A stretch of DNA of 38,418 nt from Gammaproteobacteria bacterium (GTDB lineage Bacteria; Pseudomonadota; Gammaproteobacteria; Thiohalobacterales; Thiohalobacteraceae). The stretch's first letter is position 1; the number at the start of each line of letters is the position of its first letter. Location: contig JACRMO010000110.1 of the NCBI GenBank assembly GCA_016214925.1, positions 10,182 to 48,599 on the forward strand, written 5' to 3'. Made by a program: the position numbers and the translations under genes. The notes under the pieces were generated by a model. It saw only the letters and a list, made by a program, of their open reading frames with translations, did no database searches and was not told where the DNA came from. Shown piece after piece: positions 10,723 through 34,604 of the stretch.

Positions 10723-12283
10723 ATGCTGAGCAATATCACCCTCTTGAAAAAGGCGCAGATCCTCGCGCTGTTGCTGGTTGTCTGCGTGACGGCGGTGGTG
10801 ACGGTAACGCTGCACGCCACCCGGACCATCGAGGGAATTGCGCCTCCATATCGTACAGATCCAGCAATTTTTGCAGGACATCAGCGCGACACGCGGGCAG
10901 GATGGCCTGAACGACGGTTTTGCCAATGCCGAAAAACATTATCTCGCAGCCAAGCAGAGCCTGATCGATCTTGCGGCCCTGGATGCGGGGAACGATGCCT
11001 TGTATACCGACCTGGGCGTGCGTCTGGAAGCCTATTATGCCAAGGGCAAACGCATGGCCAAGGCCTATGTCGATCTCGGACCGCCTGCTGGCAATGCCAA
11101 GATGGGCGAATTCGATGCCGCAGCCAGTGCAATCACTGAACGGGTCGATGAATTGTGCGCGAGCGCCGTCGACAACAGTTCCGCGATGTTGGCGCAGACC
11201 TCCGCATCGGCAGGCATGGCCAGTCGCAATATCACGCTGCTGGCGTTGTTTGGTGGTGGTATCATGTTAGGCGGCGTGTGGTTGCTGATCAGCGCACTTC
11301 GCCCGTTGCGCGCTCTGACCGACGCGACACTGCGCATCGCGGATAATGATCTTACCGGACAGATTCCGCAGACGGGTCACCAGGACGAGGTCGGCTTGCT
11401 GAGTGCGGCTATCGTCGCCCTACAAGGCAAACTCACACATCGGATCCAGGATATCGCCAACGTGAGCCACCAGATCAATGTGGCGGTCGAAACCATGAAC
11501 GCGATTGTCGAGCACACCAGTCTGGGTGTGCAGCAACAGCACAGCGAAACCGAGCAGGTCGCGACTGCCATGAATGAAATGACCGCCACGGTGCATGAAG
11601 TCGCGCGCAATACGGCGGCGGCAGCCGCGGCGAGTCAGGCGGAAGAAGAAGTCGGTAATGGCAGCCGGGAAGTCAAACAGACCATTGCGTTGATCGGCAA
11701 ATTGGCCGACGACGTGCGTAAGGGTGCGGACGTGATCGGTCGTCTGGAAACCGACAGCAACAACATCGGCGCGGTGCTCGATGTGATTCGCGGCATCGCC
11801 GAGCAGACCAACCTGTTGGCGCTGAATGCGGCTATCGAGGCGGCGCGCGCCGGTGATCAAGGGCGCGGTTTCGCGGTGGTCGCCGACGAGGTGCGCACGC
11901 TGGCGCAGCGTACCCAGGCGTCGACTCAGGAAATCCAACAGATGATCGAGAAACTCCAGCAGGGCGCGGAGGAAGCTGTGCGCGTCATGCATGCAGGGCG
12001 CAGTCAGGCCGAGGCCAGCGTGACGCAGGCGAGTCAGGCAGGCCGTTCACTGGACAGCATCCGTGCCGCGGTATCGACCATCCACGATATGTCGACGCAG
12101 ATCGCCAGCGCCTCCGAGGAACAGGGCGCGGTAGCCGAAGAGATCAATCGCAACATCGTCAATATCAGTCAGGTGGTTGTGCAGACCGCCGACGATGCCG
12201 CGCAGACGTCCAGTGCGGGCGAAAAGCTGGGTGGTCTGGCGGAGCAGCTGCAAACGGTGGTCGCGCGCTTCAAGCTGCCGTAA
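10723..12283 (+). pseudogene. Methyl-accepting chemotaxis protein, split by a +1 frameshift near 10833-10835
   Basis: ATG 10723 has a strong SD (AAAGGAGA) and encodes TM1 (MLSNITLLKKAQILALLLVVCVTAVVTV) in frame 1. The rest of the protein is in frame 2, which opens only at 10808: ligand-binding region with [14 protein letters not shown]2, HAMP, and the signalling domain with [32 protein letters not shown]. Removing one G from the GGG run at 10833-10835 gives a continuous ...[17 protein letters not shown]... Confidence 0.7.
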
Positions 12284-12307: not shown

Positions 12308-13000
12308 TCAGTCCTCGCGCGCGCCGCTATCCAGAAACGCGCGCAGCTCCGGGGTATGCAGCCGACAGCGCGCGTGATCGCCATCGGCGAAATGCAGATC
12401 GCCGATCAGATTCAAGCGCTGCAAGCTGAGCAGCGCATTGGTGATATCCAGGGTTTGCAATCCCGCCTGTTCGCTCAAACTCGCCAAGTTGAGTTTCAGC
12501 GTTTGTCCGTTGCCGCCGTCGTTGGCCTGCTGCGCCAACAGGCGCATCCCCACATACAGCATATGCTGGCATTGCAGGGCGTCGACTAGACGCTGATTGA
12601 TGTCGTTGAGCTTCACCGACAGCGAACGCAGCATGCGCACGCTCAGCGCCGGGAAATGCTGGAGCGCCGTGGCGAAATCCGCGTTGGCCAATTCCAGCAG
12701 GGTGAGCGGGCCGTCGCTGAGAATGCTGGCCGAACGCTTCAAATCCATGAACACACCCATCTCGCCGATGATCGAGCCCTTCTCGGCGATGGCAATGACA
12801 TTGCTGTTGCCGGTGGCGTCGTTTTTGATGATGCGGGCACGGCCGGTCAACACAATATACACCGCATCGCAGGGCGCGCCTTCGCGGACCACCACCTCGC
12901 CGGTTTTGTATTGATGGCGGCGGCCATAGTCGTTGAGAAATCGGGTGGCTTCTTCGCTGAGGCGGGTGGGCAGACTTTCCAGAATGGGATTGTTCGTCAT
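12308..13000 (-). CDS. Crp/Fnr-family regulator (cNMP-binding domain + C-terminal wHTH-like region)
   Basis: cNMP-binding beta-barrel with GSIIGEMGVFMDLKRSASILS (GE...R.A cassette). C-terminal LKLNLASLSEQAGLQTLDITNALLSLQRLNLI resembles a Crp-type HTH. AAGGA SD upstream. Confidence 0.7.
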   Translation of the reverse strand: MTNNPILESLPTRLSEEATRFLNDYGRRHQYKTGEVVVREGAPCDAVYIVLTGRARIIKNDATGNSNVIAIAEKGSIIGEMGVFMDLKRSASILSDGPLTLLELANADFATALQHFPALSVRMLRSLSVKLNDINQRLVDALQCQHMLYVGMRLLAQQANDGGNGQTLKLNLASLSEQAGLQTLDITNALLSLQRLNLIGDLHFADGDHARCRLHTPELRAFLDSGARED

Positions 13001-15917: not shown

Positions 15918-18404
15918 ATGTCGGCGCCGGAGAACGCCCCGTTCGATACCTTGCCCGGTGAATCCGGTCAGGCCGCGCTGCTGGAGATGCCGCGCAAGCT
16001 GGCGCATATTCAAACCCTCTGGCAGAAACTCCTGTTCGTCAAATGGGAACCACAGGTTCTGGAGCTGATCCATCGGCTGGCGCATGACATCCTGGTCACG
16101 GCCAAAGCGGAGGCCTTGACCGAGATCGCGCAGATCGCCCGGCGGCTGGAACAGCAACTCGAAGTTTTGCAGTGCCGGTTAGTCGCGCCGCCGGAAGTCG
16201 AACGCGGCCAGGTGAAAGGCATTCTGCAACGGTTGGCGCGCGCGATTCTGGCCTCGCAGGCGAGCGAACCCTCATTACCGCCACCACAGCCACCCGTCGT
16301 AACGGCGCTTGCGCCGGAGCTTGCCGAGGTTCCGCGAGCCGGGGATGCCCAACGCATCTATGTGCTGGAACCGGATACCCGCGAGGCCGAGCTGTTGGCC
16401 CTGCGATTGAGTCATTACGGCTATGCCGTGAGTTGGTTCACGACGCCGGCGGAGCTGCGTCAGGCCATGCAGCGCCGGGCGCCGGAGATCATACTGGCCG
16501 ATGTGCAGTCGACGCAGGATAGGTTGGCCGGCATCGAGGCGGTCGATGGCTTGCGTTCGGAGTTCGGCACGGATATTCCAGTGATTTTCCTGTCCACGCG
16601 CACCGATCTGGTCGCGCGGCTTGCTGCGGTGCGTGCCGGTGGCCTGGGCTTCTTTCCAAAGCCCGTGGATTTCGATGAACTGTTCCGCCGCGTTGACGAA
16701 CTCCTGCAACGACAGACAACCCATTACAAAGTGTTGATCGTCGAAGACGAGGAACAGCTGGCCAATGCCTATGCGCTGGTGCTGCAGCAAGCGGGCTTCG
16801 GCACGCAGGTGCTGCCCAGGCCGTTACAGATTCTACAGGTGCTGCATCAGTTCCAGCCGGATCTGATCCTGATGGACTTGCATCTGCCGGAATGCACTGG
16901 CATCGAACTGATGCAACTGATTCGCCAGGAACCGGCGTATTACGCGCTCCCCATTTTGTTCCTGTCGAGCGACAACGATCCCGCCAAACACAATGCCGCG
17001 CTGAGTCAGGGCGCGGATTTGTTCCTGCTCAAGCCGATCAAGCCGGCGCAACTGGTCGCCGCGGTCTCCCATCGGGTCGGTCGCGCGCGGGCGTTGATGC
17101 GTCTAATGCACTTCCTCGGCCAGCAGGATCCGTTGACCGGGTTGTTGAATCAACGCGCGTTCCTTGGACATCTCGAACGGCATCTGACGGAGCTGCGCAG
17201 CGGTATGCCGAAGGCGGTGTTGGTGTACTGCGAGGCCGATCAATATCGGGACTTGCGCGATCGGCTCGGTATCTCCATCGCAGATTTGTTGCTGGCGGAT
17301 CTTGCGGCGCGGATCAAGGATCGCTTGGGTCGGGCGAGCCGCCTCGCGCATCTATCCGAAGGTAGTTTCTGCGCCTTGTTGCTGGACATGGATGTGGTCG
17401 CCGCGCACGATCTTGCCAACGCGCTGTGTCAAGCCGTGGCCGCCAGCGTATTCAACGCCGAGCAGGAATCGGTGTCCATGACGCTGAGCGTGGGCGTGGC
17501 GCCGCTGGATGTGCGCCATGCAACCGGGCAGGACTGGCTGAGCACGGCAGCATTGGCGTGTGACACTGCTCGTGATGCCGGTGGCAACCGCGTGCAATTG
17601 CCTCGTGAGGCGGCAGACGATGTGGCGGCCCATGAGCAGCATATGCGTTGTGCCGCGTTGTTGCGCGAAGCGTTGGCCAACGATGGTTTCTATTGTCTGT
17701 ATCAGCCGATTGCCGGTTTGCGTGGCAAGCAGGTTGAACGCTACGACGTGCTATTGCGCATGCGCGATCCGCAGGGACGCGAGATCACGGCGGCACGGAT
17801 CCTCGATGTGGCGCGCGTCGAAGGTCTGGTTCAGGACATCGACCGCTGGGTCGTGCGGGCGATGCTCGAACAGTTGCGGCAGCGTACCGCATCGGGCGCC
17901 AAGACGGTGTTCTTCATCAAACTGGCCGCCGAATCGTTGCACGATCCCGATTTCGGCGCCTGGCTCGAACACAATCTGACGACGTCCGCGGTGAATCCAC
18001 GGCAACTGGTGTTCGAGTGCATGGAAGCGGACGTTGCGCTGTCGGTGCGCGTGGCGGGCCTGATGTTTGCGCGCCTGCGCAGTCTGGGTTGCGGTATCGC
18101 CCTGGAGCATTTCGGCGCCAGCCTGGACGCTTTGCAACTGCTGAGCCATGTGACGGTCGATTATGTGAAGATCGATGCCGCGTTCGTCCACAGCCTGGTG
18201 CGCAATCCCGCCGACCGCGACACTTTGCGCGGTATCCTCCAGCAGGCCAGTGCGACAGGCGCCATGGTGATTGCGGGGTTCGTCGAGGATGCGGCGAGTC
18301 TGGCGGCGCTCTGGCAGTGTGGCGTGCATTTCATCCAAGGTAATTTCCTGCAGGAACCGGATACCGCGTTGGATTACGATTTCAGCGACGTATCGTCCGA
18401 CTAA
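15918..18404 (+). CDS. Multidomain signalling protein: N-terminal helical (Hpt-like?) region, two REC domains, degenerate GGDEF, degenerate EAL
   Basis: REC2 is canonical (KVLIVEDEE...DLILMDLHLPECTG...FLLKP). The GGDEF position reads SEGSF. The EAL position reads DVL (ERYDVLLRM) and DDFGTG reads EHFGAS. YQPI, ECME, KID and QG are retained. Confidence 0.85.
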   Translation: MSAPENAPFDTLPGESGQAALLEMPRKLAHIQTLWQKLLFVKWEPQVLELIHRLAHDILVTAKAEALTEIAQIARRLEQQLEVLQCRLVAPPEVERGQVKGILQRLARAILASQASEPSLPPPQPPVVTALAPELAEVPRAGDAQRIYVLEPDTREAELLALRLSHYGYAVSWFTTPAELRQAMQRRAPEIILADVQSTQDRLAGIEAVDGLRSEFGTDIPVIFLSTRTDLVARLAAVRAGGLGFFPKPVDFDELFRRVDELLQRQTTHYKVLIVEDEEQLANAYALVLQQAGFGTQVLPRPLQILQVLHQFQPDLILMDLHLPECTGIELMQLIRQEPAYYALPILFLSSDNDPAKHNAALSQGADLFLLKPIKPAQLVAAVSHRVGRARALMRLMHFLGQQDPLTGLLNQRAFLGHLERHLTELRSGMPKAVLVYCEADQYRDLRDRLGISIADLLLADLAARIKDRLGRASRLAHLSEGSFCALLLDMDVVAAHDLANALCQAVAASVFNAEQESVSMTLSVGVAPLDVRHATGQDWLSTAALACDTARDAGGNRVQLPREAADDVAAHEQHMRCAALLREALANDGFYCLYQPIAGLRGKQVERYDVLLRMRDPQGREITAARILDVARVEGLVQDIDRWVVRAMLEQLRQRTASGAKTVFFIKLAAESLHDPDFGAWLEHNLTTSAVNPRQLVFECMEADVALSVRVAGLMFARLRSLGCGIALEHFGASLDALQLLSHVTVDYVKIDAAFVHSLVRNPADRDTLRGILQQASATGAMVIAGFVEDAASLAALWQCGVHFIQGNFLQEPDTALDYDFSDVSSD

Positions 18405-20012: not shown

Positions 20013-21392
20013 TCAGGCGACCATACGTGCCAGTTCGTCGAGCTCGATGTTACCTGCCCACAGGGCCTCACTGGCGGCGATGACCTTGGCGGCATCGAGT
20101 CCCAGCTTCTCCAGACTGGTGGTCGGAAGCTCGGTGACTGTTGTCGTGCCTAAACCGCAACGAGCCAACAGACGGTCGGCGATGAGGACCAATTGCGAAT
20201 AGGCGGCGTGGTCGCCCCAGTAGTTTTCATCGTGATGATGACGTGCGGCGGTGACCAATTCCTCCGGCAGACCCCAGGCGGCCAGCAGCCAGGCACCGAT
20301 CTGATCGTGGCCGACACCGAGCACGTACTTCTCGATGGTTTCGACTGGCACACCCGGATTGGCGTCGAGATAGCGGTTGAGCAGAAAGAATTCGGCCTGG
20401 AAGGCATGGCCGAGCAGCAGCATACCCATGTTGTGCAACAATCCCGCAAGATATGCCGTGCCTCGGCGCGGCCGTTTATCCGCCGGCATCATCTGCGATA
20501 GACGTTCGACCAATGCGGCGGAATGCACCGAATGACGCCAGAAGGCATCCAGTCCGAGCGGCCCGTCGGCAGGCACGCGCAATGATTTGCCGACAGTAAT
20601 GCCGAGTGCCAGATTCAGCACGAAGTCGAATCCCAACACGCGCGCAATTGCGCTCTTGAGATCTTTGATCTTGCCTGGATACCCATACAGCGATGAATTG
20701 GCGTAGCGCAGGATGCGGGCGGCCAAGGGCGCGTCCTGCTCGATGACTTTACCGAGATCGGCCGCATTCGCGCGTGGATTGCTGGCAAGATCGAGGATGG
20801 CCAACGCCGTGCCCGGCAGCGCCGGCAGTTCATGGAATTCCTCGACGCGGCGCTTGATACGCGCTGGCGTGAATTGTTCGATAGTCTTGCTCAGCGACGC
20901 CGCGGAGTTGTCGCGTTGTAGCGCACTTACGGGATGAGAGAAATGGCCGATGCGCGGATTGCGTTGCAGGCGCGTGAATTCATCGCGGGATATGCACAGC
21001 AACAGCGAATGACTGCCGGGTTCCAGATACAGGGTGTCTTCCTCCAGCAAAACGGCATCGATGATGACGTCCAGACCGTAGGCCGCGCCGACAGGTGGGC
21101 AACAATGCGCCTCGCAATCGTCGAAGATGCCGTGCAGTTGACTGGCGGGCACGGGCTCGAGTTCTCGGCCGAGCAAGGTACACAGCGCATCGAAATCCAG
21201 GAGGTGGTTGCTGGGCAGGATCGCCATCAGGGGGCCCTGGGCATCAATCAAGACAAGCGCGCGCATCAGTTGGGATTCACGAATGCCACAGACCCGTGCG
21301 GCTTGGGTCAGGGTTTCGGTGGGCGGGTGGTGCAGCAGCTGGACGGCAGCGTTCTGAGTATCCAAAAACCGCTGGATGGCAATCGGTAGCAT
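20013..21392 (-). CDS. YbaK/aminoacyl-tRNA-editing-like domain fused to an HDOD domain
   Basis: The N-terminal ~160 aa resemble the YbaK/ProX fold (LTQAARVCGI...ALVLIDAQGPLMAILPSNHLLDFDAL...PPVGAAYGLDVIIDAVLLEEDTLYLEPG). The C-terminal ~280 aa are HDOD (LPALPGTALAILDLASNP...LAARILRYANSSLYG...HDQIGAWLLAAWGLPEELVTAARHHHD). ATG 21392 is preceded by GGAGGG. Confidence 0.75.
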   Translation of the reverse strand: MLPIAIQRFLDTQNAAVQLLHHPPTETLTQAARVCGIRESQLMRALVLIDAQGPLMAILPSNHLLDFDALCTLLGRELEPVPASQLHGIFDDCEAHCCPPVGAAYGLDVIIDAVLLEEDTLYLEPGSHSLLLCISRDEFTRLQRNPRIGHFSHPVSALQRDNSAASLSKTIEQFTPARIKRRVEEFHELPALPGTALAILDLASNPRANAADLGKVIEQDAPLAARILRYANSSLYGYPGKIKDLKSAIARVLGFDFVLNLALGITVGKSLRVPADGPLGLDAFWRHSVHSAALVERLSQMMPADKRPRRGTAYLAGLLHNMGMLLLGHAFQAEFFLLNRYLDANPGVPVETIEKYVLGVGHDQIGAWLLAAWGLPEELVTAARHHHDENYWGDHAAYSQLVLIADRLLARCGLGTTTVTELPTTSLEKLGLDAAKVIAASEALWAGNIELDELARMVA

Positions 21393-21663
21393 CGACGGTC
21401 CCTCCGTTGTGATTTGTTTGGGATTGTCGACTAGCCACAGCAATATTCAGGCCTATCACCTAAAACTCTATTTACATCATCAAATTATCCCGTATTCTAT
21501 GGTTTCTTCAGGGCGTTGATGCAGAGATAGCGACAAGATTACGTCGCCGAACGTATACTCCCGGGCAGGCGGTGTGTGGGCCGCACGGGTGGCATACAGA
21601 GCACTTCGGCGCTGTCCACGGCAGCACGCGCAGATCAACAACGGCAACGAGGGGCAACAGCGC

Positions 21664-24456: not shown

Positions 24457-25263
24457 ATGCCAAAAGCCGAGGACAGCGCAGCAGCGCTGCAACGTCTGTT
24501 GGACATCATGCGCCGCCTACGCGATCCGGACGGCGGCTGTCCCTGGGATTGCGCCCAGGATTTCCGCAGTATCGCGCCCTTTACCTTGGAAGAAGCCTAT
24601 GAAGTCGTCGATGCCATCGAACGCGAACGTCCCGATGAACTCTGCGATGAACTCGGCGATTTGTTATTCCAAGTGGTGTTTCATGCGCGCATGGCCGAAG
24701 AGCGTGGCTGGTTCGGTTTCGCGGAGGTGGCTGCGGCCATCGGCAATAAACTCGAACGGCGCCATCCACATGTGTTCGGCGATGTGGAGATCGCCGATGC
24801 CGAGGCGCAGACCCTGGCCTGGGAGGTGCACAAACGTGCGGAACGTGTACAGCAAGGACGACACGGTGTGCTCGATGGCGTGCCCCTGGCCTTGCCGGCG
24901 TTGACCCGCGCCGCCAAATTGCAACGTCGCGCCGCGCGCATCGGTTTGGACTGGCCGGATCACCAAGGTGTGCTCGCCAAGCTGCATGAAGAAATCGCCG
25001 AGGTCGAGGCAGCACGCACGGCTGACGATCAAGCCGCATTGAGCGCGGAGATCGGCGATCTGCTGTTTACCTGCGTAAACCTCGCACGTCATTTGGACGT
25101 CGATCCCGAAGGTGCCTTGCGCGCGGCCAACGCGCGCTTCGAGGCGCGTGTCGGCCATGTCGAGGCCAGTTTGGCAGCCACGGCAGCAGCCCCAGACCCC
25201 CGGATTCTGGATGCCGAAACCCTGGATCGCCTGTGGACGGCGGCCAAACAAACCGGGTTGTAG
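24457..25263 (+). CDS. mazG: Nucleoside triphosphate pyrophosphohydrolase MazG
   Basis: Tandem MazG domains (CPWDCAQDFRSIAPFTLEEAYEVVDAIE...ELGDLLFQVVFHA; second EEIAEVEAA...EIGDLLFTCVNLAR). AAGGAGA SD. Confidence 0.9.
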   Translation: MPKAEDSAAALQRLLDIMRRLRDPDGGCPWDCAQDFRSIAPFTLEEAYEVVDAIERERPDELCDELGDLLFQVVFHARMAEERGWFGFAEVAAAIGNKLERRHPHVFGDVEIADAEAQTLAWEVHKRAERVQQGRHGVLDGVPLALPALTRAAKLQRRAARIGLDWPDHQGVLAKLHEEIAEVEAARTADDQAALSAEIGDLLFTCVNLARHLDVDPEGALRAANARFEARVGHVEASLAATAAAPDPRILDAETLDRLWTAAKQTGL

Positions 25264-25329
25264 ATCGGGGCGCGGTTTCTGCTTACTATGCGCCGGGTTT
25301 GCGCACGCCATCACTTATGAGGGGTCGTT

Positions 25330-26526
25330 ATGGAGACACTACAAGCGGGAACTGACGTTCTCTTTATTCTACTGGGCGCCATTATGGTGCTTGCCATGCA
25401 TGCCGGCTTCGCCTTTCTGGAGCTCGGCACGGTGCGTGAGAAGAATCAGGTCAACGCCTTGGTCAAGATCATCTGCGACTTCGCCGTTTCGACCATTGCA
25501 TATTTCTTCGTCGGCTATGGTGTTGCCTATGGCGTGGATTTCCTGCGGGGCGCCGAGACGCTGACGGACAAGAACGGTTATGACCTGGTCAAATTCTTCT
25601 TCCTGCTGACTTTCGCGGCGGCAATCCCGGCGATCATCTCGGGCGGTATCGCGGAGCGGGCGCGGTTTCATCCGCAATTGATCGCGACCTTCTTATTGGT
25701 CGCGCTGGTCTATCCGTTTTTCGAAGGTATCAGTTGGAACGGTCAATGGGGCGTGCAGGACTGGATCGAGGCGCAGTTCGGCGCGCGTTTCCATGACTTC
25801 GCCGGTTCGGTCGTTGTCCACGCCATGGGAGGCTGGGTGGCACTTACCGCGGTGCTGCTGCTGGGCTCACGTCACGGGCGTTATGGAAAGGATGGCGCGG
25901 TGTACGCACATCCGCCGTCCAATATCCCATTCCTGGCCTTGGGTGCGTGGATTCTCACTGTGGGTTGGTTCGGTTTCAACGTGATGTCGGCACAGACCAT
26001 CGATGCGGTCAGTGGTCTGGTGGCCGTGAATTCATTGATGGCCATGGTCGGTGGGACGCTAGCCGCGTTGGTTGCAGGTCGTAACGATCCGGGTTTCGTA
26101 CACAACGGTCCGTTGGCCGGATTGGTCGCTGTTTGCGCGGGTTCGGATGTGATGCATCCGCTCGGCGCCTTACTGACCGGCGGTGTCGCCGGTGCGATGT
26201 TCGTGTGGTTGTTCACGCTGACGCAGAACCGGTGGAAGATCGACGACGTACTCGGTGTGTGGCCGCTGCACGGCTTGTGCGGCGCCTGGGGCGGGATCGC
26301 CGCCGGTATCTTCGGCAGCCAGTTCTGGGGCGGTTTGGGCGGTGTCAGCTTCGGCGCGCAGGTGGTCGGTACTCTGCTTGGCGTGGCGATCGCTCTGGCC
26401 GGTGGCTTTGCGATCTATGGCACGCTCAAAGCAGTGATGGGCCTGCGCCTGAGTCAGGAAGAGGAATATCAGGGCGCCGATCTCAGTATCCATCGCATCA
26501 AGGCGACACCGGAATACGACCGCTGA
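25330..26526 (+). CDS. amt: Ammonium transporter (Amt family)
   Basis: FILLGAIMVLAMHAGFAFLELG, FAGSVVVHAMGGW, LGAWILTVGWFGFN and GVWPLHGLCGAWGG are hallmark Amt motifs. Confidence 0.92.
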   Translation: METLQAGTDVLFILLGAIMVLAMHAGFAFLELGTVREKNQVNALVKIICDFAVSTIAYFFVGYGVAYGVDFLRGAETLTDKNGYDLVKFFFLLTFAAAIPAIISGGIAERARFHPQLIATFLLVALVYPFFEGISWNGQWGVQDWIEAQFGARFHDFAGSVVVHAMGGWVALTAVLLLGSRHGRYGKDGAVYAHPPSNIPFLALGAWILTVGWFGFNVMSAQTIDAVSGLVAVNSLMAMVGGTLAALVAGRNDPGFVHNGPLAGLVAVCAGSDVMHPLGALLTGGVAGAMFVWLFTLTQNRWKIDDVLGVWPLHGLCGAWGGIAAGIFGSQFWGGLGGVSFGAQVVGTLLGVAIALAGGFAIYGTLKAVMGLRLSQEEEYQGADLSIHRIKATPEYDR

Positions 26527-26597: not shown

Positions 26598-27782
26598 TTA
26601 TTGCGCGAGCGAATCGCGGTGCGGCGCACACAGACGACCGTTGTTGTAGTCATCCAGCTGCGCATGCAATGGCGAACCCATCACCCAGGCCTGGCTGCTG
26701 GCCAGCACTTGGCTGCGCACTGGCCCGTAGGTGGCCATCCAGTCATCGGCATTTTCGATCGTCTGATTAATGCAGCTGGCTTCGGTGCCGAGTGCGACGT
26801 TCAGCTTGGCAGCAACCAAGGCCTTGAACATCGTGATGGTCTTATCGGCCTTCTTAGCATTGCCCTCGGCGAGGCTCATCAACGAGATAGCCGTGGCCTT
26901 GGGATAGGTGACGCCGCCGATGGTGATCGATTCCACCGGCCAAGCTTCCGAATGATTTTTCCAATAACCGGGGGTACCGGTACCGACGTCCAGCTTGGGT
27001 GTGACATAACCGAAGTCGATGGTCTGGTCCGAGGCGTCGTTGGTCGCCAGAGTGACCAGGGTGCCGGCCGGCTCGTTGCTGTCGTCGGCGATGCCGGGGG
27101 CATTGCCGATAATCGTCGGCACCAGGTTCATGCCCAGCGGGTTGGCGTCGGCCGAAACGGTGTACTGACCCAGACACAGGTTCGGGAACTGGTAGTAACC
27201 GGGCTTGTTGTCCGGGCCACCGGTCATAGTCGTCGTGGTGACGATAGTGCCGTTGCTGTCTTGCAGGCTGACGATCACGCCGTTGAGGCCTGCTTCGGTG
27301 CTGTCCTGGATGCCATCGCGATCGCTGTCCAGCCACACATAGTCGCCGAGGGTGCCGGTGCAGGTCACAGTGCATTCGAGCAGGCCGATCTGCGATACAT
27401 CGATCGGCACAGTGTTGTAGCCGCGCAGTGTGGCTTGGCCGGAAACGACATAGGTGCCATTCAGCGTCTGATTCCACAGGCGGGTGAAATATTCGCGGAA
27501 CAAACCGGTTGGATCGGTCGTGGTGATCGCGAAGCTATCGTTTACGACGATAGGCGCGCTGCCGTCCGTCGGGCTGAGTGTAATGGAACTGTCTACCGTG
27601 GCGACTTCGCCCGCTGGCAGATAGGCAATGACACGGACATTGTAGTCATCGCAGGTAGCGGCCTTCATGGTTTCGGATTCGATCGACATGGACAACATAT
27701 CGGTCGCCGACGCCAAGGGCGCGCTCAGAATGGAAATCACCGCCAGCGCAACCGGTGACATTTTTTGTTGTTGTGCATTCAT
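26598..27782 (-). CDS. Secreted protein with SdrD-B/Cna-B-like fold domain and a C-terminal GTPGYWKNH-type domain
   Basis: Signal peptide (MNAQQQKMSPVALAVISILSAPLASA). GDYVWLDSDRDGIQDSTEAGLNGVIVSLQDSNG...GYYQFPNLCLGQYTV is a typical SD-repeat B-type domain. ATG 27782 follows GAGGG. Confidence 0.7.
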   Translation of the reverse strand: MNAQQQKMSPVALAVISILSAPLASATDMLSMSIESETMKAATCDDYNVRVIAYLPAGEVATVDSSITLSPTDGSAPIVVNDSFAITTTDPTGLFREYFTRLWNQTLNGTYVVSGQATLRGYNTVPIDVSQIGLLECTVTCTGTLGDYVWLDSDRDGIQDSTEAGLNGVIVSLQDSNGTIVTTTTMTGGPDNKPGYYQFPNLCLGQYTVSADANPLGMNLVPTIIGNAPGIADDSNEPAGTLVTLATNDASDQTIDFGYVTPKLDVGTGTPGYWKNHSEAWPVESITIGGVTYPKATAISLMSLAEGNAKKADKTITMFKALVAAKLNVALGTEASCINQTIENADDWMATYGPVRSQVLASSQAWVMGSPLHAQLDDYNNGRLCAPHRDSLAQ

Positions 27783-28119: not shown

Positions 28120-29181
28120 TTGCAACCCGAACACAGCCCCATGGACCCGCGCCGTCTGGCGCAGTTGGTCCCGCTCAACAGTCTCTCGACGGACAATTTC
28201 AAGGATCTGGCCCAGAAGGTCCGTATCGAACATCTGACTGCCGGTCGTTCCGTGTTCCGGCGGGGTGACCGGGACAATCTGACCGTCTATCTGCTCGAAG
28301 GCGAACTGGAACTGCGCGACGCTGAGAATGCGCCATCGACATTGCAGGCGGGCATGCCCGCCGCACGCCACCCGTTGGCTCCGCAGCAGCCGCGCACGCT
28401 CAACGCGGTGGCGCGTACCGACATCAGCATCGTGCGCATCGATACCGATTTGCTGGACATCCTGCTCACCTGGGATCAGTCCGCCGGCTATGTCGTCACC
28501 GAATTGGAAGACGGGGATGCGGCCGCGGATGCCGACTGGATGACGCGGATGCTCGGTTCCAAAGTATTCCATCAGGTGCCACCGGCGAATATCCAGGAGA
28601 TTTTCCGACGCATGGAGGCGGTGCCGGTCAGCGCGGGCGACGTCGTGATCCGTCAGGGCGAGCAGGGCGATTATTACTTCGTGCTGCGCCAGGGGCAGGC
28701 CGAGGTCAGTCGCCGTGCGCCGAATGGTACCGTGATTCGACTGGCGCAATTGAATCAGGGTGCCTGCTTCGGCGAAGAAGCGCTGCTGTCGGATGGCGAA
28801 CGGAATGCCACGGTGACCATGCTGAGCGACGGCCTGATGATGCGCTTATCGAAAGCCGATTTCGACGCCCTGCTCAAAGCGCCGTTGCTGCATGACGTGG
28901 ATTTCGCCACGGCGACACAGCGGGTCGCCGGCGGCGCACGCTGGCTGGACGTGCGCCTGGAGAGCGAACATCACAACGGCGCAATCCCCGGCAGTCTCAA
29001 TATTCCGCTGTTTCTGTTGCGCCTGCGGTTGCGCGAACTCGACCCCGTGCTGACCTATGTGCTGTATTGCGATACCGGACGGCGCAGCGCGGCGGCGGCC
29101 TATCTGCTCAGCGAGGCAGGTTTCAATATTCTTATCCTCTCAGGCGGGTGTCTTGGTGTGTTGACGGCTGCGGCCGCCTGA
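28120..29181 (+). CDS. Tandem cyclic-nucleotide-binding domains fused to a rhodanese domain
   Basis: CNB-2 has a canonical phosphate-binding cassette (FGEEALLSDGERNATV). CNB-1 lacks it. The rhodanese domain has the active-site loop YCDTGRRS. TTG 28120 lies 7 nt after GGAGG; ATG 28141 is an alternative start. Confidence 0.8.
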   Translation: MQPEHSPMDPRRLAQLVPLNSLSTDNFKDLAQKVRIEHLTAGRSVFRRGDRDNLTVYLLEGELELRDAENAPSTLQAGMPAARHPLAPQQPRTLNAVARTDISIVRIDTDLLDILLTWDQSAGYVVTELEDGDAAADADWMTRMLGSKVFHQVPPANIQEIFRRMEAVPVSAGDVVIRQGEQGDYYFVLRQGQAEVSRRAPNGTVIRLAQLNQGACFGEEALLSDGERNATVTMLSDGLMMRLSKADFDALLKAPLLHDVDFATATQRVAGGARWLDVRLESEHHNGAIPGSLNIPLFLLRLRLRELDPVLTYVLYCDTGRRSAAAAYLLSEAGFNILILSGGCLGVLTAAAA

Positions 29182-29298: not shown

Positions 29299-30609
29299 AT
29301 GTACAGACGCAGTATCGGGATTATCTTGCTGAGCGTATGGCTTGCTCAGGCAGCGTACGCCGGCACCCTCGACGCAGAAATCCAACGGCTGTTGCAGTTG
29401 GGTCAGCCGCAGGCTGCCTGGACACTGGCGCAGCAGAATCTGCCGGAGCATGCCGGCGAACCGGCATTTGATTTCGCGGCAGGTCTCGCCGCCCTCGAAG
29501 CGGGGCAACCACAGCATGCCGTCATGGCCCTGGAGCGGGTGCTGCTCGTGCAGCCCTCATTTCACCGCGCCCGTTTGGAGCTGGCGCGCGCCTACTACCA
29601 GTTAGGCGATTACGCCGCCGCGCGCCGCGAATTTCAGACCGTGGAGGCCATCGGCCCACCACCGAACGTGCGCCGGCGGGTCGAGTCGTTTCTCGCCGAG
29701 ATCCAACGTCGTGAAGAGGACGGCCGCACCCAAGTGACCGGTTACGTGGAGTTGCGTCCGGGTTGGGACAGCAACGTGAGCAGTGCCACGGCCGACAGCA
29801 CCGTCGATATTCCCGCGCTCGGGGTCGTCGGTCTTAGCGCGGACAGTCGCGCGCGCAGCGATCGCTTCCTGGACAAGAATGCCGGTGTCACGCTGGTGCG
29901 GCCGTTGGATAAACGCCGCGCCGTGTTTGCCGATGTGGCGTATCGCGACCGCGAGAATGTCGAAACGCAGGCGTATGACACGCGCAGTATCGGGCTGAGT
30001 GCCGGCATGGCCTGGGCCAATGAGGCGGATCGCATACGGTTGCCGGTGCAATATCAGGTGCTGTATCTCGCCAACCAAGAATATAGGCGCTTGGCCGCGC
30101 TGGGCGTGGAGTGGTCACGCGATCTCGACCCGCGCAATCAAGTGCTGGCCTTTGGTCAGTTAGGCACAATCCGCTATCCCGACGACGCGACCCGCGATGT
30201 GGATTCGTTGTTGGGCGGTGGCGCTTGGAACCATCGCTATGCCGAATTACCTCTGCTGGTGTCCACGAGCGCCTATCTCGGCGACGAGGCTGCGCGTGAG
30301 AGCGCCGGCGATCCCAATGGCCGCACGTATTACGGCGTGCGTCTGGGCGCGCAATGGAGCGGCATCCCGGCGCACACACCCTATGCCAGCCTGAGCTGGC
30401 AACATTCCGGTTACGACGCCGTAAACCCGGTGTTTGTGCGTACCCGCGACGAAGACTTCGCGGAACTGCGCCTGGGCTGGGATTGGCAGCCGCAGCAGCG
30501 CTGGAATGTAACCGCGGAGGCGAGTTTCGTGGACAACGGCGCGAATATCGCCTTGTACGACTACACGCGACAACAGTATGCGGTGGGTGTGCGGTATCAG
30601 TTCGATTGA
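29299..30609 (+). CDS. TPR + outer-membrane beta-barrel protein, DUF560/Slam-like (type 11 secretion system component candidate)
   Basis: Signal peptide MYRRSIGIILLSVWLAQAAYA. TPR-like helices (AVMALERVLLVQPSFHRARLELARAYYQLGDYAAARREF). About 280 aa of beta-strand-pattern sequence (GYVELRPGWDSNVSSA...) follow, ending NGANIALYDYTRQQYAVGVRYQFD. The family call is from architecture and remembered motifs. Confidence 0.55.
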   Translation: MYRRSIGIILLSVWLAQAAYAGTLDAEIQRLLQLGQPQAAWTLAQQNLPEHAGEPAFDFAAGLAALEAGQPQHAVMALERVLLVQPSFHRARLELARAYYQLGDYAAARREFQTVEAIGPPPNVRRRVESFLAEIQRREEDGRTQVTGYVELRPGWDSNVSSATADSTVDIPALGVVGLSADSRARSDRFLDKNAGVTLVRPLDKRRAVFADVAYRDRENVETQAYDTRSIGLSAGMAWANEADRIRLPVQYQVLYLANQEYRRLAALGVEWSRDLDPRNQVLAFGQLGTIRYPDDATRDVDSLLGGGAWNHRYAELPLLVSTSAYLGDEAARESAGDPNGRTYYGVRLGAQWSGIPAHTPYASLSWQHSGYDAVNPVFVRTRDEDFAELRLGWDWQPQQRWNVTAEASFVDNGANIALYDYTRQQYAVGVRYQFD

Positions 30610-30623
30610 ATGCGAGGTGTAGC

Positions 30624-32375
30624 GTGTCGTTAATCATGATAAGTCGCCGGTCATTCGCTGTGCTCTTGGGTTTGGCGCTGGCTTATGTGGTGAGCATGCA
30701 GCCGGTACTCGCTGCCGCGCCGGAGGCGGCCGGTCAGGTGATCGTCGCCAGCGGCACGGTACAAGCACTGGTGTCGACCGGCGAACAACGTACGCTGCGT
30801 CGACGCTCGCCATTCTATGCGGGTGAGATTATCCGCACTGCGGCGGCTTCCGCGGTGCAACTGCGCTTCAGCGACGGCGCATTGATGTCGTTGCGCGCCG
30901 ACAGTGAACTCAAGGTCGACAATTACCGATTTCAGAATCATGGCGGTGCCGGCGACCGCAGCATGTCCACCCTTATCAAAGGCGGCCTGCGCACCATCAC
31001 TGGCGTGATCGGCAAGCAGGATCCCTCGGCCTATCAACTGAGCACGCCGGTGGCGACCATCGGTGTGCGCGGCACGCATTACGAAGCGGTGCTGGAATCG
31101 CCGAAGAGTCTGGTGCTGGCGGCTTGGCAGGGCGGTATCCGCGTGCGCAACGAGCATGGCGCGATCGATCTGGGTGTAGGTGCCGATTACAACTTCGGCC
31201 GTGCCCAAGCCGAACAATCACCGCGTGGACTGCTGGAACCGCCGGCGGTATTGCAGAACGAAACGCCGGTCGGTCACGCGCAGCCTGTGGAGAAGACGGC
31301 GGCGCAGGACGAAAGCACGGCGCAAGAAGATGCCCCGACCGATACCGAGACACAGACGGCGGAAACGGGTACGGAACCATCGACAACCGAACCCACGGTC
31401 GCGGAAGGCGAGAGCGAGTTCTCCACGACCGACACGGGCGTTGCCACGGAACCCGCCGAGACTATGGGCGGCGATACCTTCGACAGTCCAATCGGCAGCC
31501 CGATCGCCGATACCGCGTGCAGCACCTGCGCCCCGCCACAGCAGATCGTGGTCACGCAACCGGACGATTTGCCGGCGTCTTCCGATCTGCGTTTCACCGC
31601 GCTCGAATGGGACAAGCTCAAGACTTCGCCGTATTTGGGCATGGCTGTGGAAGCCAATAACACGCCTGATTATGGCTTCGACGGTGGTCGTGTGCTCTAT
31701 CATGATACCGATTCGCCGGTGTTCGCCGACAACGGGTTCGGACCGCACGAGCCGCAGTACGCCACTGCGCCAATCCAGGATGTGCTACGCAGGGGTGGCG
31801 CGTCCGTCGATGCCTTCCAAAGTTTTCGTGTCGATGCCGGGCACACGGTCTATTGGGGAACGTGGAACGGCAACATCAACCCCGTGGAGATCCAGACCGA
31901 TGCGACCGATCCTACGGTCAAGGAGCACATCTATGCCCCTTTCCATTGGGCGACCTTGTTGCCCACCGATCCAGGCGCGATTGCCGCGCGTACCGGCACT
32001 GTGATGTATAACAACGTGATCGTTGCGCACGGCGGTGGCAGCGGTGGTGGGCCGCTCACGCCGGGTAATGTGATGTTCAACGCCAATGTGAATTTCGATA
32101 CCGGCGCCATTACCAACGGCAACCTGAATATCTACAACGGACCGGAAATATGGAACGTGGGCTTCGGCGGCAAGGTGGGTGGCAATATCGTGGATGTCCA
32201 CGTCAATAGCGCGATCAGTTCGGTCTCCGTGTCGACCACGAATCCCCAGCCGGTCGAAGGTGATATCGGAATGGCATTCACCGGGAATAACGGCCAGGCG
32301 ATCGGCGGCGGTTTTTCGTTGCAGGCGATCGGCAATCCGGGCACGCATGTCGAAGGCATTCTGCTGGTGAAATAA
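30624..32375 (+). CDS. Secreted chimera: N-terminal FecR domain, acidic Thr/Glu/Pro-rich linker, C-terminal TbpB-like (TbpBBD) beta-barrel
   Basis: SPI-type signal (FAVLLGLALAYVVSMQPVLAAAPE, no lipobox Cys). FecR-like region (VIVASGTVQAL...IRTAAASAVQLRFSDGALMSLRADSEL...STPVATIGVRGTHYEAV...GGIRVRNEHG). Linker of about 100 aa (EKTAAQDESTAQEDAPTDTETQTAETGTEPSTTEPTV...). C-terminal pattern ANVNFDTGAITNGNLNI...WNVGFGGKVGGN...VEGDIGMAFTGNNGQAIGGGFSLQ...VEGILLVK is like TbpB/fHbp barrels. Start is GTG 30624 (after GAGGTG) or ATG 30636. Confidence 0.6.
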   Translation: MSLIMISRRSFAVLLGLALAYVVSMQPVLAAAPEAAGQVIVASGTVQALVSTGEQRTLRRRSPFYAGEIIRTAAASAVQLRFSDGALMSLRADSELKVDNYRFQNHGGAGDRSMSTLIKGGLRTITGVIGKQDPSAYQLSTPVATIGVRGTHYEAVLESPKSLVLAAWQGGIRVRNEHGAIDLGVGADYNFGRAQAEQSPRGLLEPPAVLQNETPVGHAQPVEKTAAQDESTAQEDAPTDTETQTAETGTEPSTTEPTVAEGESEFSTTDTGVATEPAETMGGDTFDSPIGSPIADTACSTCAPPQQIVVTQPDDLPASSDLRFTALEWDKLKTSPYLGMAVEANNTPDYGFDGGRVLYHDTDSPVFADNGFGPHEPQYATAPIQDVLRRGGASVDAFQSFRVDAGHTVYWGTWNGNINPVEIQTDATDPTVKEHIYAPFHWATLLPTDPGAIAARTGTVMYNNVIVAHGGGSGGGPLTPGNVMFNANVNFDTGAITNGNLNIYNGPEIWNVGFGGKVGGNIVDVHVNSAISSVSVSTTNPQPVEGDIGMAFTGNNGQAIGGGFSLQAIGNPGTHVEGILLVK

Positions 32376-32393
32376 CGCGCGGTTGCCGAGCGG

Positions 32394-34604
32394 CTATTTC
32401 TCTCGGCGCTCGTAGACGCCGTCCCAATCTTCCGGCAAGGCACGCTCGCGGAGATGATCTATACGCTCCAGATATAAAGCGTAGAGCTGTGTCTCTGGAT
32501 GCGCCGCGTGCAAGGCCGCGAACAGCGCGTGCGCCTGCGGCCACGCGCGTCCCCAGAAATGTCCCAGCGCTTGCGCGTGGCTGGCCAGTTCCTCGCGCAG
32601 GGATTCACTGAGTTCCATCGACCGACACAGCGGTACGTAAACCTCCACGGCTTCGTGTTTGCCCTTTACACGTACACGGTCCAATTGCTGGTAAACGAAG
32701 CCAGGGGCCAGTTCGCGGGTGCGCGGCCCAACCACCAGATGCACGCCGTAGTATTTAGTCAGACCTTCCAGACGTGATGCCAGATTCACTGCATCGCCGA
32801 TCACTGTGTAGGCACGGCGATATTGCGAACCCATGTCGCCCACGTTCATGACGCCACTGTTGATGCCGATGCCGATATTGATCTCCGGCAGGCCCTCGCG
32901 CGCGAATTCTTTTTGCAGATCTTTCACGGCGTTCAGCATGTCCAGCGCGGCGGCGATGGCGTGTTCGGCATGTTCGCCGTCCTGCAGCGGCGCGCCCCAG
33001 AAAGCCATGATCATGTCGCCGACATATTTGTCGATGGTGCCACGACGGTCGAAGATGACGCGCGTCATCGGCGTGAAGAAGCGGTTGAGCAGGCTTTTGA
33101 GTTCGCCGGCGGACAATGCCTCGGAGATCGTCGTGAAGTTGCGGATGTCGGCGAATAACACCGACAGCTCGCGGCTCTCGCCGTCGAAGTCGAAATATTC
33201 CGGGCGCCGGCTCATTTCTTCGACCAGGGCCGCCGGCACGTCTTGGCCGAACCTATTCTTGAGCTGACGGCGGCTGCGCGATTCGAACAGGAAGCCGTAG
33301 CTCATGTTGAACACGGACAGCACCAGAATCAGCAACAACGGCAGGCTCAATGCGAGCGCCAGATCGGCCGATTTCCACAGCCAGACATTGCCGGCCGTCA
33401 CACCGACAAGGGCCACGGTGGCGGCCAGTAGCTGCACCCAGGCCGTGAGAAAGGGCAGCGCGCTGGCCAGCAAGACTCCAAGCAACAACATCAGTGTGAA
33501 GTTGGCGCCCTTTGCCCACGCCGGTTCCGCCGGGAAGCGACCTTCCAAGATACCGGCGAGGATGTTGGCCTGAATCTCCACGCCCGGAAATACACCCGCG
33601 ACCGGTGTGGCACGCAGATCGGCAAGCGCCAGCGCCGAGGCGCCGATCAGTACCACGCGGTTGTTCAGCGCGTCGTTGCCGATCTGTCCTCGCAGCACAG
33701 CGGTCGCCGAAACCTGTGCGAAGCTTCCGGCCGGACCACGATACGGAATCAGCACTTGGCCGCTGCCGTCGACAGCGAGATGTTTATCGCCGAGGACGAT
33801 CTGATCGACGGTTTCCAGTGCGCCGATCCGCGTGAGGCGTATGTCGGGCGTGTCGACCAGCAGGTATGTATTTGCCGCGGCCAACGCCAGCGAGGGGTAG
33901 ACGGCAGTCCCGATGCGCAACACCAGCGGCGAACGACGGATCACGCCGTCGCTGTCCGGCAGCGTGGTCAGAAAGCCGCTCGCGCGGCTGGCGTTCTGCA
34001 ACGCGGGCAGATTTCCCGTGGACGTGCGCAACGCCGGAATTGCCGTGCGCAGATCGGCGGGGACCGTCAGTATGGGCGAGGGGAGCATGCCGCTGGGAGG
34101 CGTGCGCTGATTGTGCAGTACGAAGCCCAGTACGCTATCGATTTCGGCGAGACTGGCCGCGAACTGGGCATCGGCATCGAAGGCCGCTAGATGGGCGGTC
34201 AACTGCTGTGTGATGGCTGGATCGGTCGGGCCCAAGACATCCAGGACGGTGTGGATTGGATTTGTCTCGGCCTCCGAGAACACCATATCGAAAGCGACCA
34301 CGGCGGCGCCCGCATCCCGCAATCGGGTCACGAGTTCGGCGAGGCGCGCACGTGACCAGGGCCAGCGGCCCTCGGCTTGCAAGCTGGCTTCGTCGATATC
34401 GCAGATGACGATTTGCGGGGATGCATTGGACGCCTGCGGCAAGCTGGCATTGAGCCGCAGATCATAGGCGAGGTATTCCAGACGTTCGCGGGCGGTGCGG
34501 ACGGCGGACAGTTCGTTCGTCTGCAACCACAGCATGCATGTTGCGAGCGCGAGTCCAATCAGGATGGCTGTTTTTCTGCCGCTGCCGCCGGAATGTCTCG
34601 TCAT
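32394..34604 (-). CDS. CHASE2 sensor domain - class III adenylate cyclase
   Basis: TM1, then periplasmic CHASE2 (IVICDIDEASLQAEGRWPWSRARLAELVTRLRDAGAAVVAFDMVFSE). Three TM segments follow, then the cyclase domain (LSVLFADIRNFT...IDKYVGDMIMAFWG...YTVIGDAVNLASRLE). Metal Asp residues, Asn and Arg are present, with a Lys/Thr specificity pair. ATG 34604 (MTRHSGG). Confidence 0.88.
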   Translation of the reverse strand: MTRHSGGSGRKTAILIGLALATCMLWLQTNELSAVRTARERLEYLAYDLRLNASLPQASNASPQIVICDIDEASLQAEGRWPWSRARLAELVTRLRDAGAAVVAFDMVFSEAETNPIHTVLDVLGPTDPAITQQLTAHLAAFDADAQFAASLAEIDSVLGFVLHNQRTPPSGMLPSPILTVPADLRTAIPALRTSTGNLPALQNASRASGFLTTLPDSDGVIRRSPLVLRIGTAVYPSLALAAANTYLLVDTPDIRLTRIGALETVDQIVLGDKHLAVDGSGQVLIPYRGPAGSFAQVSATAVLRGQIGNDALNNRVVLIGASALALADLRATPVAGVFPGVEIQANILAGILEGRFPAEPAWAKGANFTLMLLLGVLLASALPFLTAWVQLLAATVALVGVTAGNVWLWKSADLALALSLPLLLILVLSVFNMSYGFLFESRSRRQLKNRFGQDVPAALVEEMSRRPEYFDFDGESRELSVLFADIRNFTTISEALSAGELKSLLNRFFTPMTRVIFDRRGTIDKYVGDMIMAFWGAPLQDGEHAEHAIAAALDMLNAVKDLQKEFAREGLPEINIGIGINSGVMNVGDMGSQYRRAYTVIGDAVNLASRLEGLTKYYGVHLVVGPRTRELAPGFVYQQLDRVRVKGKHEAVEVYVPLCRSMELSESLREELASHAQALGHFWGRAWPQAHALFAALHAAHPETQLYALYLERIDHLRERALPEDWDGVYERREK

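Follow-up and report, generated by a model that had tools for sequence, protein, structure and literature searches.

A 38,418-nucleotide (nt) stretch of gammaproteobacterial DNA (hereafter, the window) encodes a protein that joins an N-terminal FecR domain to a C-terminal TbpB-like lobe, which we call the FecR-lobe protein. Its gene lies between the gene for an outer-membrane protein (OMP) that distantly resembles the Slam translocators and the gene for a probable CHASE2 adenylate cyclase. A protein with cyclic-nucleotide-monophosphate (cNMP)-binding domains, like the cyclase overlooked in a first-pass annotation of the window, completes a conserved four-gene module. In the reading that we prefer, and to which we give slightly less than even weight, the lobe would be exported through the Slam-like pore and the FecR domain would stay in the periplasm and modulate the cyclase, so that the whole would form an envelope-spanning cyclic AMP (cAMP) module. 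A sharper version is put forward with more reserve, as a tentative proposal: the protein may be a receptor dependent on the type 11 secretion system (T11SS), with a TbpB-like lobe at the surface and a retained periplasmic FecR domain as the direct input partner of the CHASE2 cyclase. The domain architecture, gene order and conservation described below are read from sequences and structure models; the topology, the direction of signal flow and the FecR–CHASE2 contact are what we infer.

Architecture of the FecR-lobe protein and its partners

The FecR-lobe open reading frame (ORF) begins 14 nt after the stop codon of the OMP gene (30607–30609), with a GTG start that is followed by an in-frame ATG four codons further on, at 30636 (coordinates of all features are collected in Table 1). 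The public gene call of an identical protein (P0001) starts 12 codons further in; because that start removes half of the signal peptide, we retained the GTG. The N-terminus reads MSLIMISRRSFAVLLGLALAYVVSMQPVLA followed by AAPEAAGQVI, with a predicted signal-peptidase-I cleavage between VLA and AAPE that we place from the sequence and from the mature N-terminus A-A-P-E-x-A-G-Q-V-I, which is conserved in our full-length alignment A3. The first-pass annotation had described a signal peptide without a lipobox Cys, and this description stands: no Cys precedes residue 299, which excludes a lipobox. The FecR-lobe protein is thus predicted to be Sec-exported and non-lipidated. We had also considered a lipoprotein, a reading ruled out by the signal-peptide region, which contains no Cys. 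Homologs mostly have signal peptides of the signal-peptidase-I type; some have Cys residues in their N-termini, including a few lipobox-like motifs, and the distant P0060, P0063 and P0066 (‘LAAC’) could be lipoproteins.

The FecR region begins about five residues past the cleavable signal peptide. Its assignment holds in a profile search, with Pfam FecR (PF04773) matching residues 70–172 at E = 4.1e-12 (46.8 bits against a cut-off of 24), and it is the best conserved of the four regions of the protein. The N-terminal signal peptide is the sole hydrophobic segment, and neither a cytoplasmic anti-sigma domain nor an internal transmembrane helix is present in the protein. A PDB sequence search with the FecR region and the full-length profile gave a single match, 5ix9 (E = 0.0048), and found no solved FecR-domain relative by sequence. 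NCBIfam returned weak matches to the Leptospira FecR-domain proteins LipL45 and Lsa33. Residues 33–101 (approximately nt 30720–30926) weakly resemble the retention module of LapA and MpIBP (NF033682, 26.2 bits, below the cut-off of 50).

Between the two domains lies the low-complexity linker that the first-pass annotation had also recognized. It is rich in Thr (18%), Ala (12%), Glu (11%), Pro (10%), Asp (10%) and Ser (8%), and is strongly acidic, with 20% Asp and Glu against 1% Lys and Arg. Linker length in 42 homologs varies from 31 to 367 amino acids (aa; median 107), and the segment is always acidic and rich in S, T, P, A, G and Q at a sequence identity of only 19–39%, which indicates that it is conserved as a property rather than as a sequence.

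The C-terminus is one TbpB-like lobe of approximately 265 aa, comprising a beta-strand handle followed by an 8-strand barrel. Its identity as a TbpB-type lobe is supported by homologs, profile and model together, Pfam and NCBIfam having given no TbpB_B_D match on the window protein's own C-terminus. Two homologs that align over 94–98% of the window protein (P0036 and P0047) and two shorter relatives (P0057 and P0120) match TbpB_B_D (PF01298) at their extreme C-termini, with scores of 35.8, 34.3, 29.7 and 28.7 bits against a cut-off of 26. A profile made from an alignment of 31 C-terminal modules (A1) and searched against all PDB sequences retrieved TbpB 5kkx (E = 9.5e-6), TbpB 4qq1, three NHBA/GNA2132 entries and TbpB 3hoe, aligned to module positions 141–258; the remaining matches were noise (E > 0.5), leaving TbpB and NHBA as the only credible ones. 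Our AlphaFold2 (AF2) model of residues 311–583 (pLDDT 92.4, pTM 0.90) places eight long strands at module positions 155–272, and the 22 best PDB structures that Foldseek matched to it are without exception LbpB, TbpB, fHbp or NHBA (probability 0.96–1.0), with HpuA also matched below these ranks. Alignments to the isolated TbpB C-lobe 5kkx extend over 268–272 columns (target-normalised TM-score 0.51–0.53); they cover both handle and barrel, and the folded unit is therefore a complete lobe. The first-pass annotation had placed a TbpB-type barrel in the last ~125 aa. The fold is borne out by the Pfam matches of homologs, the PDB profile and the AF2 model with its Foldseek matches; the extent is not, as the handle before the barrel had been missed. 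We presume that the barrel is the domain recognized by the Slam-like OMP.

Lobes can be repeated. Several homologs have two in tandem, and an exhaustive profile search of 1.84 billion representative proteins returned 534 clusters at E ≤ 1e-3, of which 134 reach E ≤ 1e-30; a single protein can show as many as 7 matched stretches. The family thus ranges from 1 to 7 tandem lobes, the proteins with 4–7 lobes measuring 1,300–2,300 aa. All six multi-lobe proteins that we scanned begin with a single FecR domain, an arrangement that would fit a surface array on a periplasmic base. More distant C-termini, scanned singly with Pfam, gave a TbpB_B_D match in 1 case out of 42. A profile of these distant extensions (A4) had hemophilin 8glo, TbpB, NHBA and LbpB as its best PDB matches, by which the distant extensions are likewise predicted to be TbpBBD-like.

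Many distant members (P0034–P0037, P0039, P0045–P0047 and P0054) carry a short Cys pair past the last barrel strand, as in QCANPSTC, ECSAGPPAC and GCGTVCP. The close family of the window protein lacks this pair and has instead a motif just before the lobe, CxTC[AT]PPQQ, that alignment A3 shows to be conserved in the close family only; in the window protein it forms the end of the linker, C-S-T-C-A-P-P-Q-Q (nt 31518–31544). The two Cys motifs may be alternative disulfide staples.

The OMP encoded immediately upstream is what we call a distant relative of the Slam/DUF560 (type 11 secretion) proteins. Its own Pfam matches are to TPR_19, TPR_16 and TPR_9 and to DUF2860 (25.3 bits, above the cut-off). 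Among 27 homologs, 13 match SlipAM (DUF560, PF04575) at E ≤ 0.01, the best at 3.4e-13, and 10 match TPR_Slam. The AF2 model of the OMP (pLDDT 92.8) shows TPR helices at 24–141 and 14 long strands at 145–435, and Foldseek, searching a PDB library without Slam structures, matched it to the TPR-and-barrel exporters BcsC and PelB, with the best target-normalised TM-scores to the 14-strand barrels OmpG (0.67–0.70) and CymA (0.55–0.57). A TPR and 14-strand barrel gene next door, with nearly half of its homologs recognizable as SlipAM/DUF560, lends support to the idea of the first-pass annotation that the lobe protein may be a Slam cargo.

On the other side of the FecR-lobe gene, and convergent with it, lies the cyclase gene. 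Its product matches CHASE2 (3.7e-59) and Guanylate_cyc (9.9e-23) in Pfam, and its best PDB relatives are adenylate cyclases, including Pseudomonas aeruginosa CyaB (3r5g, 4e-28). The Lys of IDKYVGD and the Thr of YTVIGD presumably point to ATP as the substrate, and by sequence the protein is a probable adenylate cyclase. The fourth gene of the module, upstream of the OMP gene, encodes two cNMP-binding domains and a rhodanese domain, and its product is a candidate cyclic-nucleotide effector. The C-terminal rhodanese domain contains an active-site-like loop with a Cys, YCDTGRRS. Such a fusion hints that a sulfurtransferase is under the control of cyclic nucleotides, a point of note given that several organisms carrying the module oxidise sulfur.

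Conservation and co-occurrence of the module

The trio of OMP, FecR-lobe and CHASE2 cyclase genes occurs in Thiohalobacter thiocyanaticus (L001, on a 3.06-Mb contig), in two metagenome contigs (L002 and L003), in L005, in a JGI contig (L006) and in Rheinheimera (L004), there with a cadherin-repeat gene inserted. A search of species-representative genomes with alignment A3 added Methylocaldum, Thiogranum (L010, whose protein is the one found in L005), Cocleimonas, Oceanospirillum and others, and many metagenome-assembled genomes also have the trio. The cyclase gene follows the FecR gene in L001, L002, L005, L006, L007 and L011–L014, and the cNMP-rhodanese gene stands just upstream of the OMP gene in L002, L005, L006, L008, L013 and L014. 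Because flanking genes vary between loci, the OMP, FecR-lobe and cyclase genes appear to travel as a unit. Chance adjacency of the four genes was also considered, and is ruled out by this synteny amid differing flanks. The fusion that the first-pass annotation had picked out is therefore recurrent, with the OMP and the CHASE2 cyclase as its recurrent neighbours.

A broader sample of 73 usable FecR relatives from species-representative genomes links the parts of the protein to different partners. Counting a C-terminal extension as long when at least 150 aa follow the FecR domain, we found an upstream OMP at 52 loci with a long and 4 with a short extension, and none at 3 loci with a long and 14 with a short one. 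Long extensions hence accompany 52 of 56 proteins with an OMP and 3 of 17 without (Fisher p = 4.6e-9, uncorrected for phylogeny and indicative only), an association that again speaks for the Slam-cargo idea. The 14 short proteins without an OMP have signal peptides, and 11 of them are encoded beside a CHASE2 cyclase. This pattern indicates that the FecR domain goes with CHASE2 and the TbpB-like extension with the Slam-like OMP, and its simplest reading is a division of labour in which each part would serve its own partner. Regional identities fit the same division: to close and distant homologs, respectively, they are 0.80 and 0.55 for the FecR region, 0.70 and 0.44 for the barrel, 0.71 and 0.39 for the handle (the least conserved folded part), and 0.39 and 0.19 for the linker, a gradient of FecR > barrel ≥ handle >> linker.

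Two variations on the FecR domain were seen in the same set. Ten short OMP-less FecR proteins beside CHASE2 (L016, L017, L025, L029, L033, L036, L039, L053, L059 and L069) have a G/S/T/P-rich tail, and 8 of the 10 end in a conserved motif, [SGND]-F-C-[IV]-x(0-2), near the C-terminus; in L016 and L033, FCVGLL is followed by ~15 more residues. The conserved terminal Cys suggests a covalent link or modification. In P0100 (Halofilum sp., 573 aa), an OmpA-like integral beta-barrel takes the place of the TbpB-like lobe in the fusion with FecR domains. Here a FecR domain is joined to the outer membrane by different means, and the protein could resemble NsrA as that protein has been described.

Proposed signal route and competing explanations

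In the mechanism that we favour, signal peptidase I would cleave the exported protein, after which the C-terminal barrel would be recognized by the Slam-like pore. The lobe would be threaded outwards C-terminus first and fold on the cell surface, as proposed for TbpB. The N-terminal FecR domain would enter last and be held back, either by its own folding or by binding to the periplasmic CHASE2 domain, and the ~105-residue acidic linker would run through or along the pore, bridging lobe and FecR domain. Ligand binding to the surface lobe would then alter the FecR–CHASE2 contact and with it the rate of cAMP synthesis, and the neighbouring cNMP-binding/rhodanese protein, along with Crp-like regulators, would read the signal. 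The tethered transducer that the first-pass annotation had envisaged has a plausible topology in this light. Elements of this route have been described elsewhere. In the published Slam model, an unfolded substrate is recognized through a specificity motif at its C-terminus, and the chain passes the channel to fold outside (PMC9090332), and LapA is lodged in its pore by an N-terminal retention module (bioRxiv 10.1101/198937).

Several observations weigh against this route. Known Slam/T11SS cargo is translocated whole, N-terminal-domain retention being without precedent there. The window's OMP falls below the thresholds of both diagnostic families (TPR_Slam, 22.9 against 35.2 bits; SlipAM/DUF560, 13.8 against 22). 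At 31 of the 52 loci with an OMP and a long FecR protein there is no CHASE2 cyclase within 8 kb, so that the OMP–FecR pair does not need CHASE2. Of ten downstream genes scanned at CHASE2-less distant loci with an OMP and a FecR extension, six encode instead a TPR and Glyco_transf_41 (GT41; O-GlcNAc-transferase-like) protein, directly after the FecR gene in five cases and as the second gene in L073; TPR-GT41 is a second recurrent context of the pair. Finally, Leptospira LipL45 and Lsa33, the weak NCBIfam matches, are reportedly named as a lipoprotein and a surface adhesin, and by this naming a FecR domain could lie on the outside.

That last point leads to the strongest of the competing explanations, which we regard as unlikely yet worth serious weight: the protein may be an ordinary T11SS cargo, translocated whole with its FecR domain and then released or displayed as a binding protein or adhesin. 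The cyclase would then be a co-regulated neighbour or a monitor of the unexported periplasmic pool. The ‘surface adhesin’ label of Lsa33 and the match to LipL45 favour such an outcome, and arrays of up to 7 lobes look like large surface proteins. Precedent favours it as well, as all characterised Slam/T11SS substrates, including the non-lipidated hemophilin/HphA, cross fully (bioRxiv 10.1101/2023.03.29.534853; PMC9090332). An ordinary cargo, however, leaves three features unexplained: the short, lobe-less FecR proteins that stand beside CHASE2 without an OMP (11 of 14), the FecR region being the most conserved part, and its position, always single and N-terminal and thus last into a pore entered C-terminus first.

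It is more improbable still, in our judgement, that nothing is exported. The lobe would then remain periplasmic and dock on the OMP, either at its TPR domain or in its lumen; sensing of the outside would fall to the OMP, as it does to FecA or NsrA, and the FecR-lobe protein would be a purely periplasmic adaptor between OMP and cyclase. The logic would be that of classical FecA–FecR signalling and of NsrA–CyaK (PMC7529298). Such an arrangement is also compatible with an OMP too divergent for confident DUF560 assignment from its own sequence, and recognition between barrel and OMP is expected in either case. Yet every characterised TbpBBD barrel protein ends up outside the outer membrane, the 4–7-lobe proteins are hard to picture as periplasmic adaptors at their length, and the handles diverge faster than the other folded parts, as expected of exposed ligand-binding surfaces.

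A classical FecR anti-sigma factor of FecIRA-type iron-uptake signalling with an extra C-terminal domain, for which the Pfam FecR domain and the frequency of FecR regulators beside hemophilin/T11SS loci (bioRxiv 10.1101/2023.03.15.532718) would speak, is rejected on the domain layout described above and on the neighbours, since neither an extracytoplasmic function (ECF) sigma factor nor a TonB-dependent transducer was found among those scanned from 26.6 to 34.8 kb, the 10 large ORFs upstream or the genes of loci L001–L006.

Genomic setting and relation to known systems

Outside the module, the window is rich in signalling genes, encoding a methyl-accepting chemotaxis protein (MCP), a response-regulator-GGDEF-EAL protein and an HDOD protein. 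A further product, 230 aa long and with one cNMP-binding domain, is in our reading a Crp/Fnr-type regulator and may be a second cAMP reader. Between the gene for the ammonium transporter Amt and the module lies a gene for a secreted SdrD_B-domain protein (Pfam, 1.1e-23), which is probably not part of the module because it is missing from the equivalent position in L002. Further upstream are nitrogen-assimilation genes, comprising a nirB-like gene and a nasA-like nitrate reductase gene besides Amt, together with MazG. Such genes again stand upstream of the module in two divergent loci (MazG–Amt in L002, 2919–5310; nirB–nirD–nasA in L005, 1–4456), and may reflect a physiological link or just retained synteny. 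Another neighbour is what we take, from its translation, to be ispB. A consensus scan of the region for promoters and terminators gave a site count not above chance; the hairpin listed in Table 1 is weak and only its position is suggestive.

Table 1 Features of the window and of related loci
Feature	Position	Strand	Basis or remark
Two cNMP-binding domains and rhodanese domain protein	28120..29181	+	Pfam cNMP_binding 1.4e-27 (two stretches), Rhodanese 4.6e-14
Slam/T11SS-like OMP: signal peptide, periplasmic TPR domain, 14-stranded beta-barrel	29299..30609	+	Pfam, homologs, AF2
Ribosome-binding site GAGG	30614..30617	+	6 nt upstream of GTG start; direct sequence reading
FecR-lobe gene, 583 codons (583-aa protein)	30624..32375	+	GTG start at 30624
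Sec signal peptide, residues 1–30, signal-peptidase-I type (predicted)	30624..30713	+	Translation; no Cys
FecR-type beta-sandwich region, residues ~36–210	30729..31253	+	Pfam FecR and conserved block in A3
Acidic low-complexity linker, residues ~212–318 (~105 aa)	31257..31577	+	Composition
Handle domain, residues ~320–455	31581..31988	+	AF2 beta strands at module positions 28–135
TbpB_B_D-type 8-stranded barrel, residues ~456–583	31989..32372	+	PDB profile, AF2 model, Pfam matches of homologs
Short terminator-like hairpin	32381..32395	+	Between convergent FecR-lobe and cyclase genes; consensus scan
CHASE2 and class III nucleotide cyclase	32394..34604	-	Convergent with FecR-lobe gene; likely start MTRHSGG
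230-aa protein, single cNMP-binding domain	12308-13000	-	
Secreted SdrD_B-domain protein	26598-27758	-	Pfam
MCP, response-regulator-GGDEF-EAL and HDOD proteins	10838-12283, 15918-18404, 20013-21443	+, +, -	Window signalling genes
Nitrogen-assimilation genes/MazG	284-2812, 7977-10631, 24457-26526		Upstream of module
TPR-GT41 genes	L028:9549-11729, L043:9492-11486, L074:9488-11680, L084:10320-12443, L076:10408-12453, L073:12301-14409		In related loci

The FecR-lobe protein shares with the TbpB_B_D cargo of Slam/T11SS (TbpB, LbpB, fHbp, HpuA and NHBA) a gene that adjoins that of a TPR and 14-strand barrel OMP, and a C-terminal 8-strand TbpB-type barrel after a handle domain. It differs in having an N-terminal FecR signalling domain in place of a lipid anchor or a domain that binds nutrients or host factors, in an OMP too divergent to reach the DUF560 threshold of Pfam, and in its partners, which are a CHASE2 cyclase and a cNMP-binding protein and not a TonB-dependent receptor. 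Unlike the surface lipoproteins of the TbpB and fHbp type, it has no +1 lipobox Cys; its signal-peptidase-I type Sec signal peptide is like that of hemophilin. Non-lipidated Slam cargo was already an established category, missed by the first-pass annotation, with hemophilin/HphA as its example (bioRxiv 10.1101/2023.03.29.534853). FecR, CHASE2 and cyclases go unmentioned in the main text of the T11SS cargo surveys searched (PMC12282271 and PMC8406197), and in the two hemophilin preprints searched FecR figures only as a neighbouring iron regulator (bioRxiv 10.1101/2023.03.29.534853 and 10.1101/2023.03.15.532718).

Classical FecA–FecR–FecI signalling likewise links a periplasmic FecR domain (PF04773) to an outer-membrane component and carries an outside signal to the inner membrane. 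Here the anti-sigma domain, the transmembrane helix, the ECF sigma factor and the TonB-dependent transducer are lacking; a CHASE2 cyclase would deliver cAMP as the output, and the outer-membrane link would be a covalently fused TbpB-like lobe instead of a contact with the signalling domain of a receptor. In the model that we prefer there is also a likeness to LapA/MpIBP retention, in which a folded N-terminal domain stays periplasmic with the rest of the chain through an outer-membrane pore, and to which residues 33–101 are weakly similar. That system, however, is a type 1 secretion system (T1SS) with a TolC-like pore; the NF033682 score lies far below its cut-off, no LapG/LapD system is present here and no T1SS genes were found near the FecR-lobe gene.

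The pairing of FecR and CHASE2 genes itself has been recorded. In Burkholderia and P. aeruginosa, a LysM-FecR protein is encoded beside a CHASE2 histidine kinase (PMC5192318), its second domain being LysM, unlike the TbpB lobe here. A Campylobacterota cluster comprises a CHASE2 cyclase, a FecR-domain protein, a TPR protein and a phosphodiesterase (PMC9239204); the TPR protein and the cyclase that it also includes make it probable that this cluster is a module of the same kind. Both reports give domain names only, and propose no TbpB-like lobe, no relation to Slam/T11SS and no mechanism. An OMP upstream of CHASE2 adenylate cyclases is known from Sinorhizobium meliloti, where activation of CyaK, CyaD1 and CyaD2 by an external (protein) signal depends on outer-membrane NsrA (PMC7529298, PMC13001267); NsrA is described as a large integral beta-barrel protein. 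What was already known is thus a gene cluster noted once in the literature, and what is new is the link between the FecR–TbpB-lobe protein and T11SS.

The proteins so far known to use type 11 secretion are surface lipoproteins and hemophores whose task is to capture metals, heme or host factors, and nearly all of them come from host-associated bacteria. The same cargo fold, with a Slam-like pore, is found here in Gammaproteobacteria that live freely and are mostly sulfur oxidisers, methane oxidisers or marine. Slam-like OMPs include a large clade that lies below the DUF560 Pfam threshold, and surveys that start from DUF560 are therefore likely to miss them. The module is amenable to testing, as Thiohalobacter thiocyanaticus is a named species with sequenced genomes and Slam translocation has reportedly been reconstituted in Escherichia coli.

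Taken with its gene neighbours, the FecR-lobe protein suggests that a T11SS-type cargo and its pore have been recruited into a CHASE2/cAMP signalling module. If the lobe is displayed and the FecR domain retained as proposed, the protein would be the first T11SS substrate with a signalling instead of a scavenging role, and neither TonB nor an ECF sigma factor would be needed to relay events at the surface to the inner membrane, a route that would be new for Gram-negative cells. CHASE2, a widespread sensor with poorly understood inputs, which were described as unknown in 2016 (PMC5192318), would then gain a defined protein partner and an input route.

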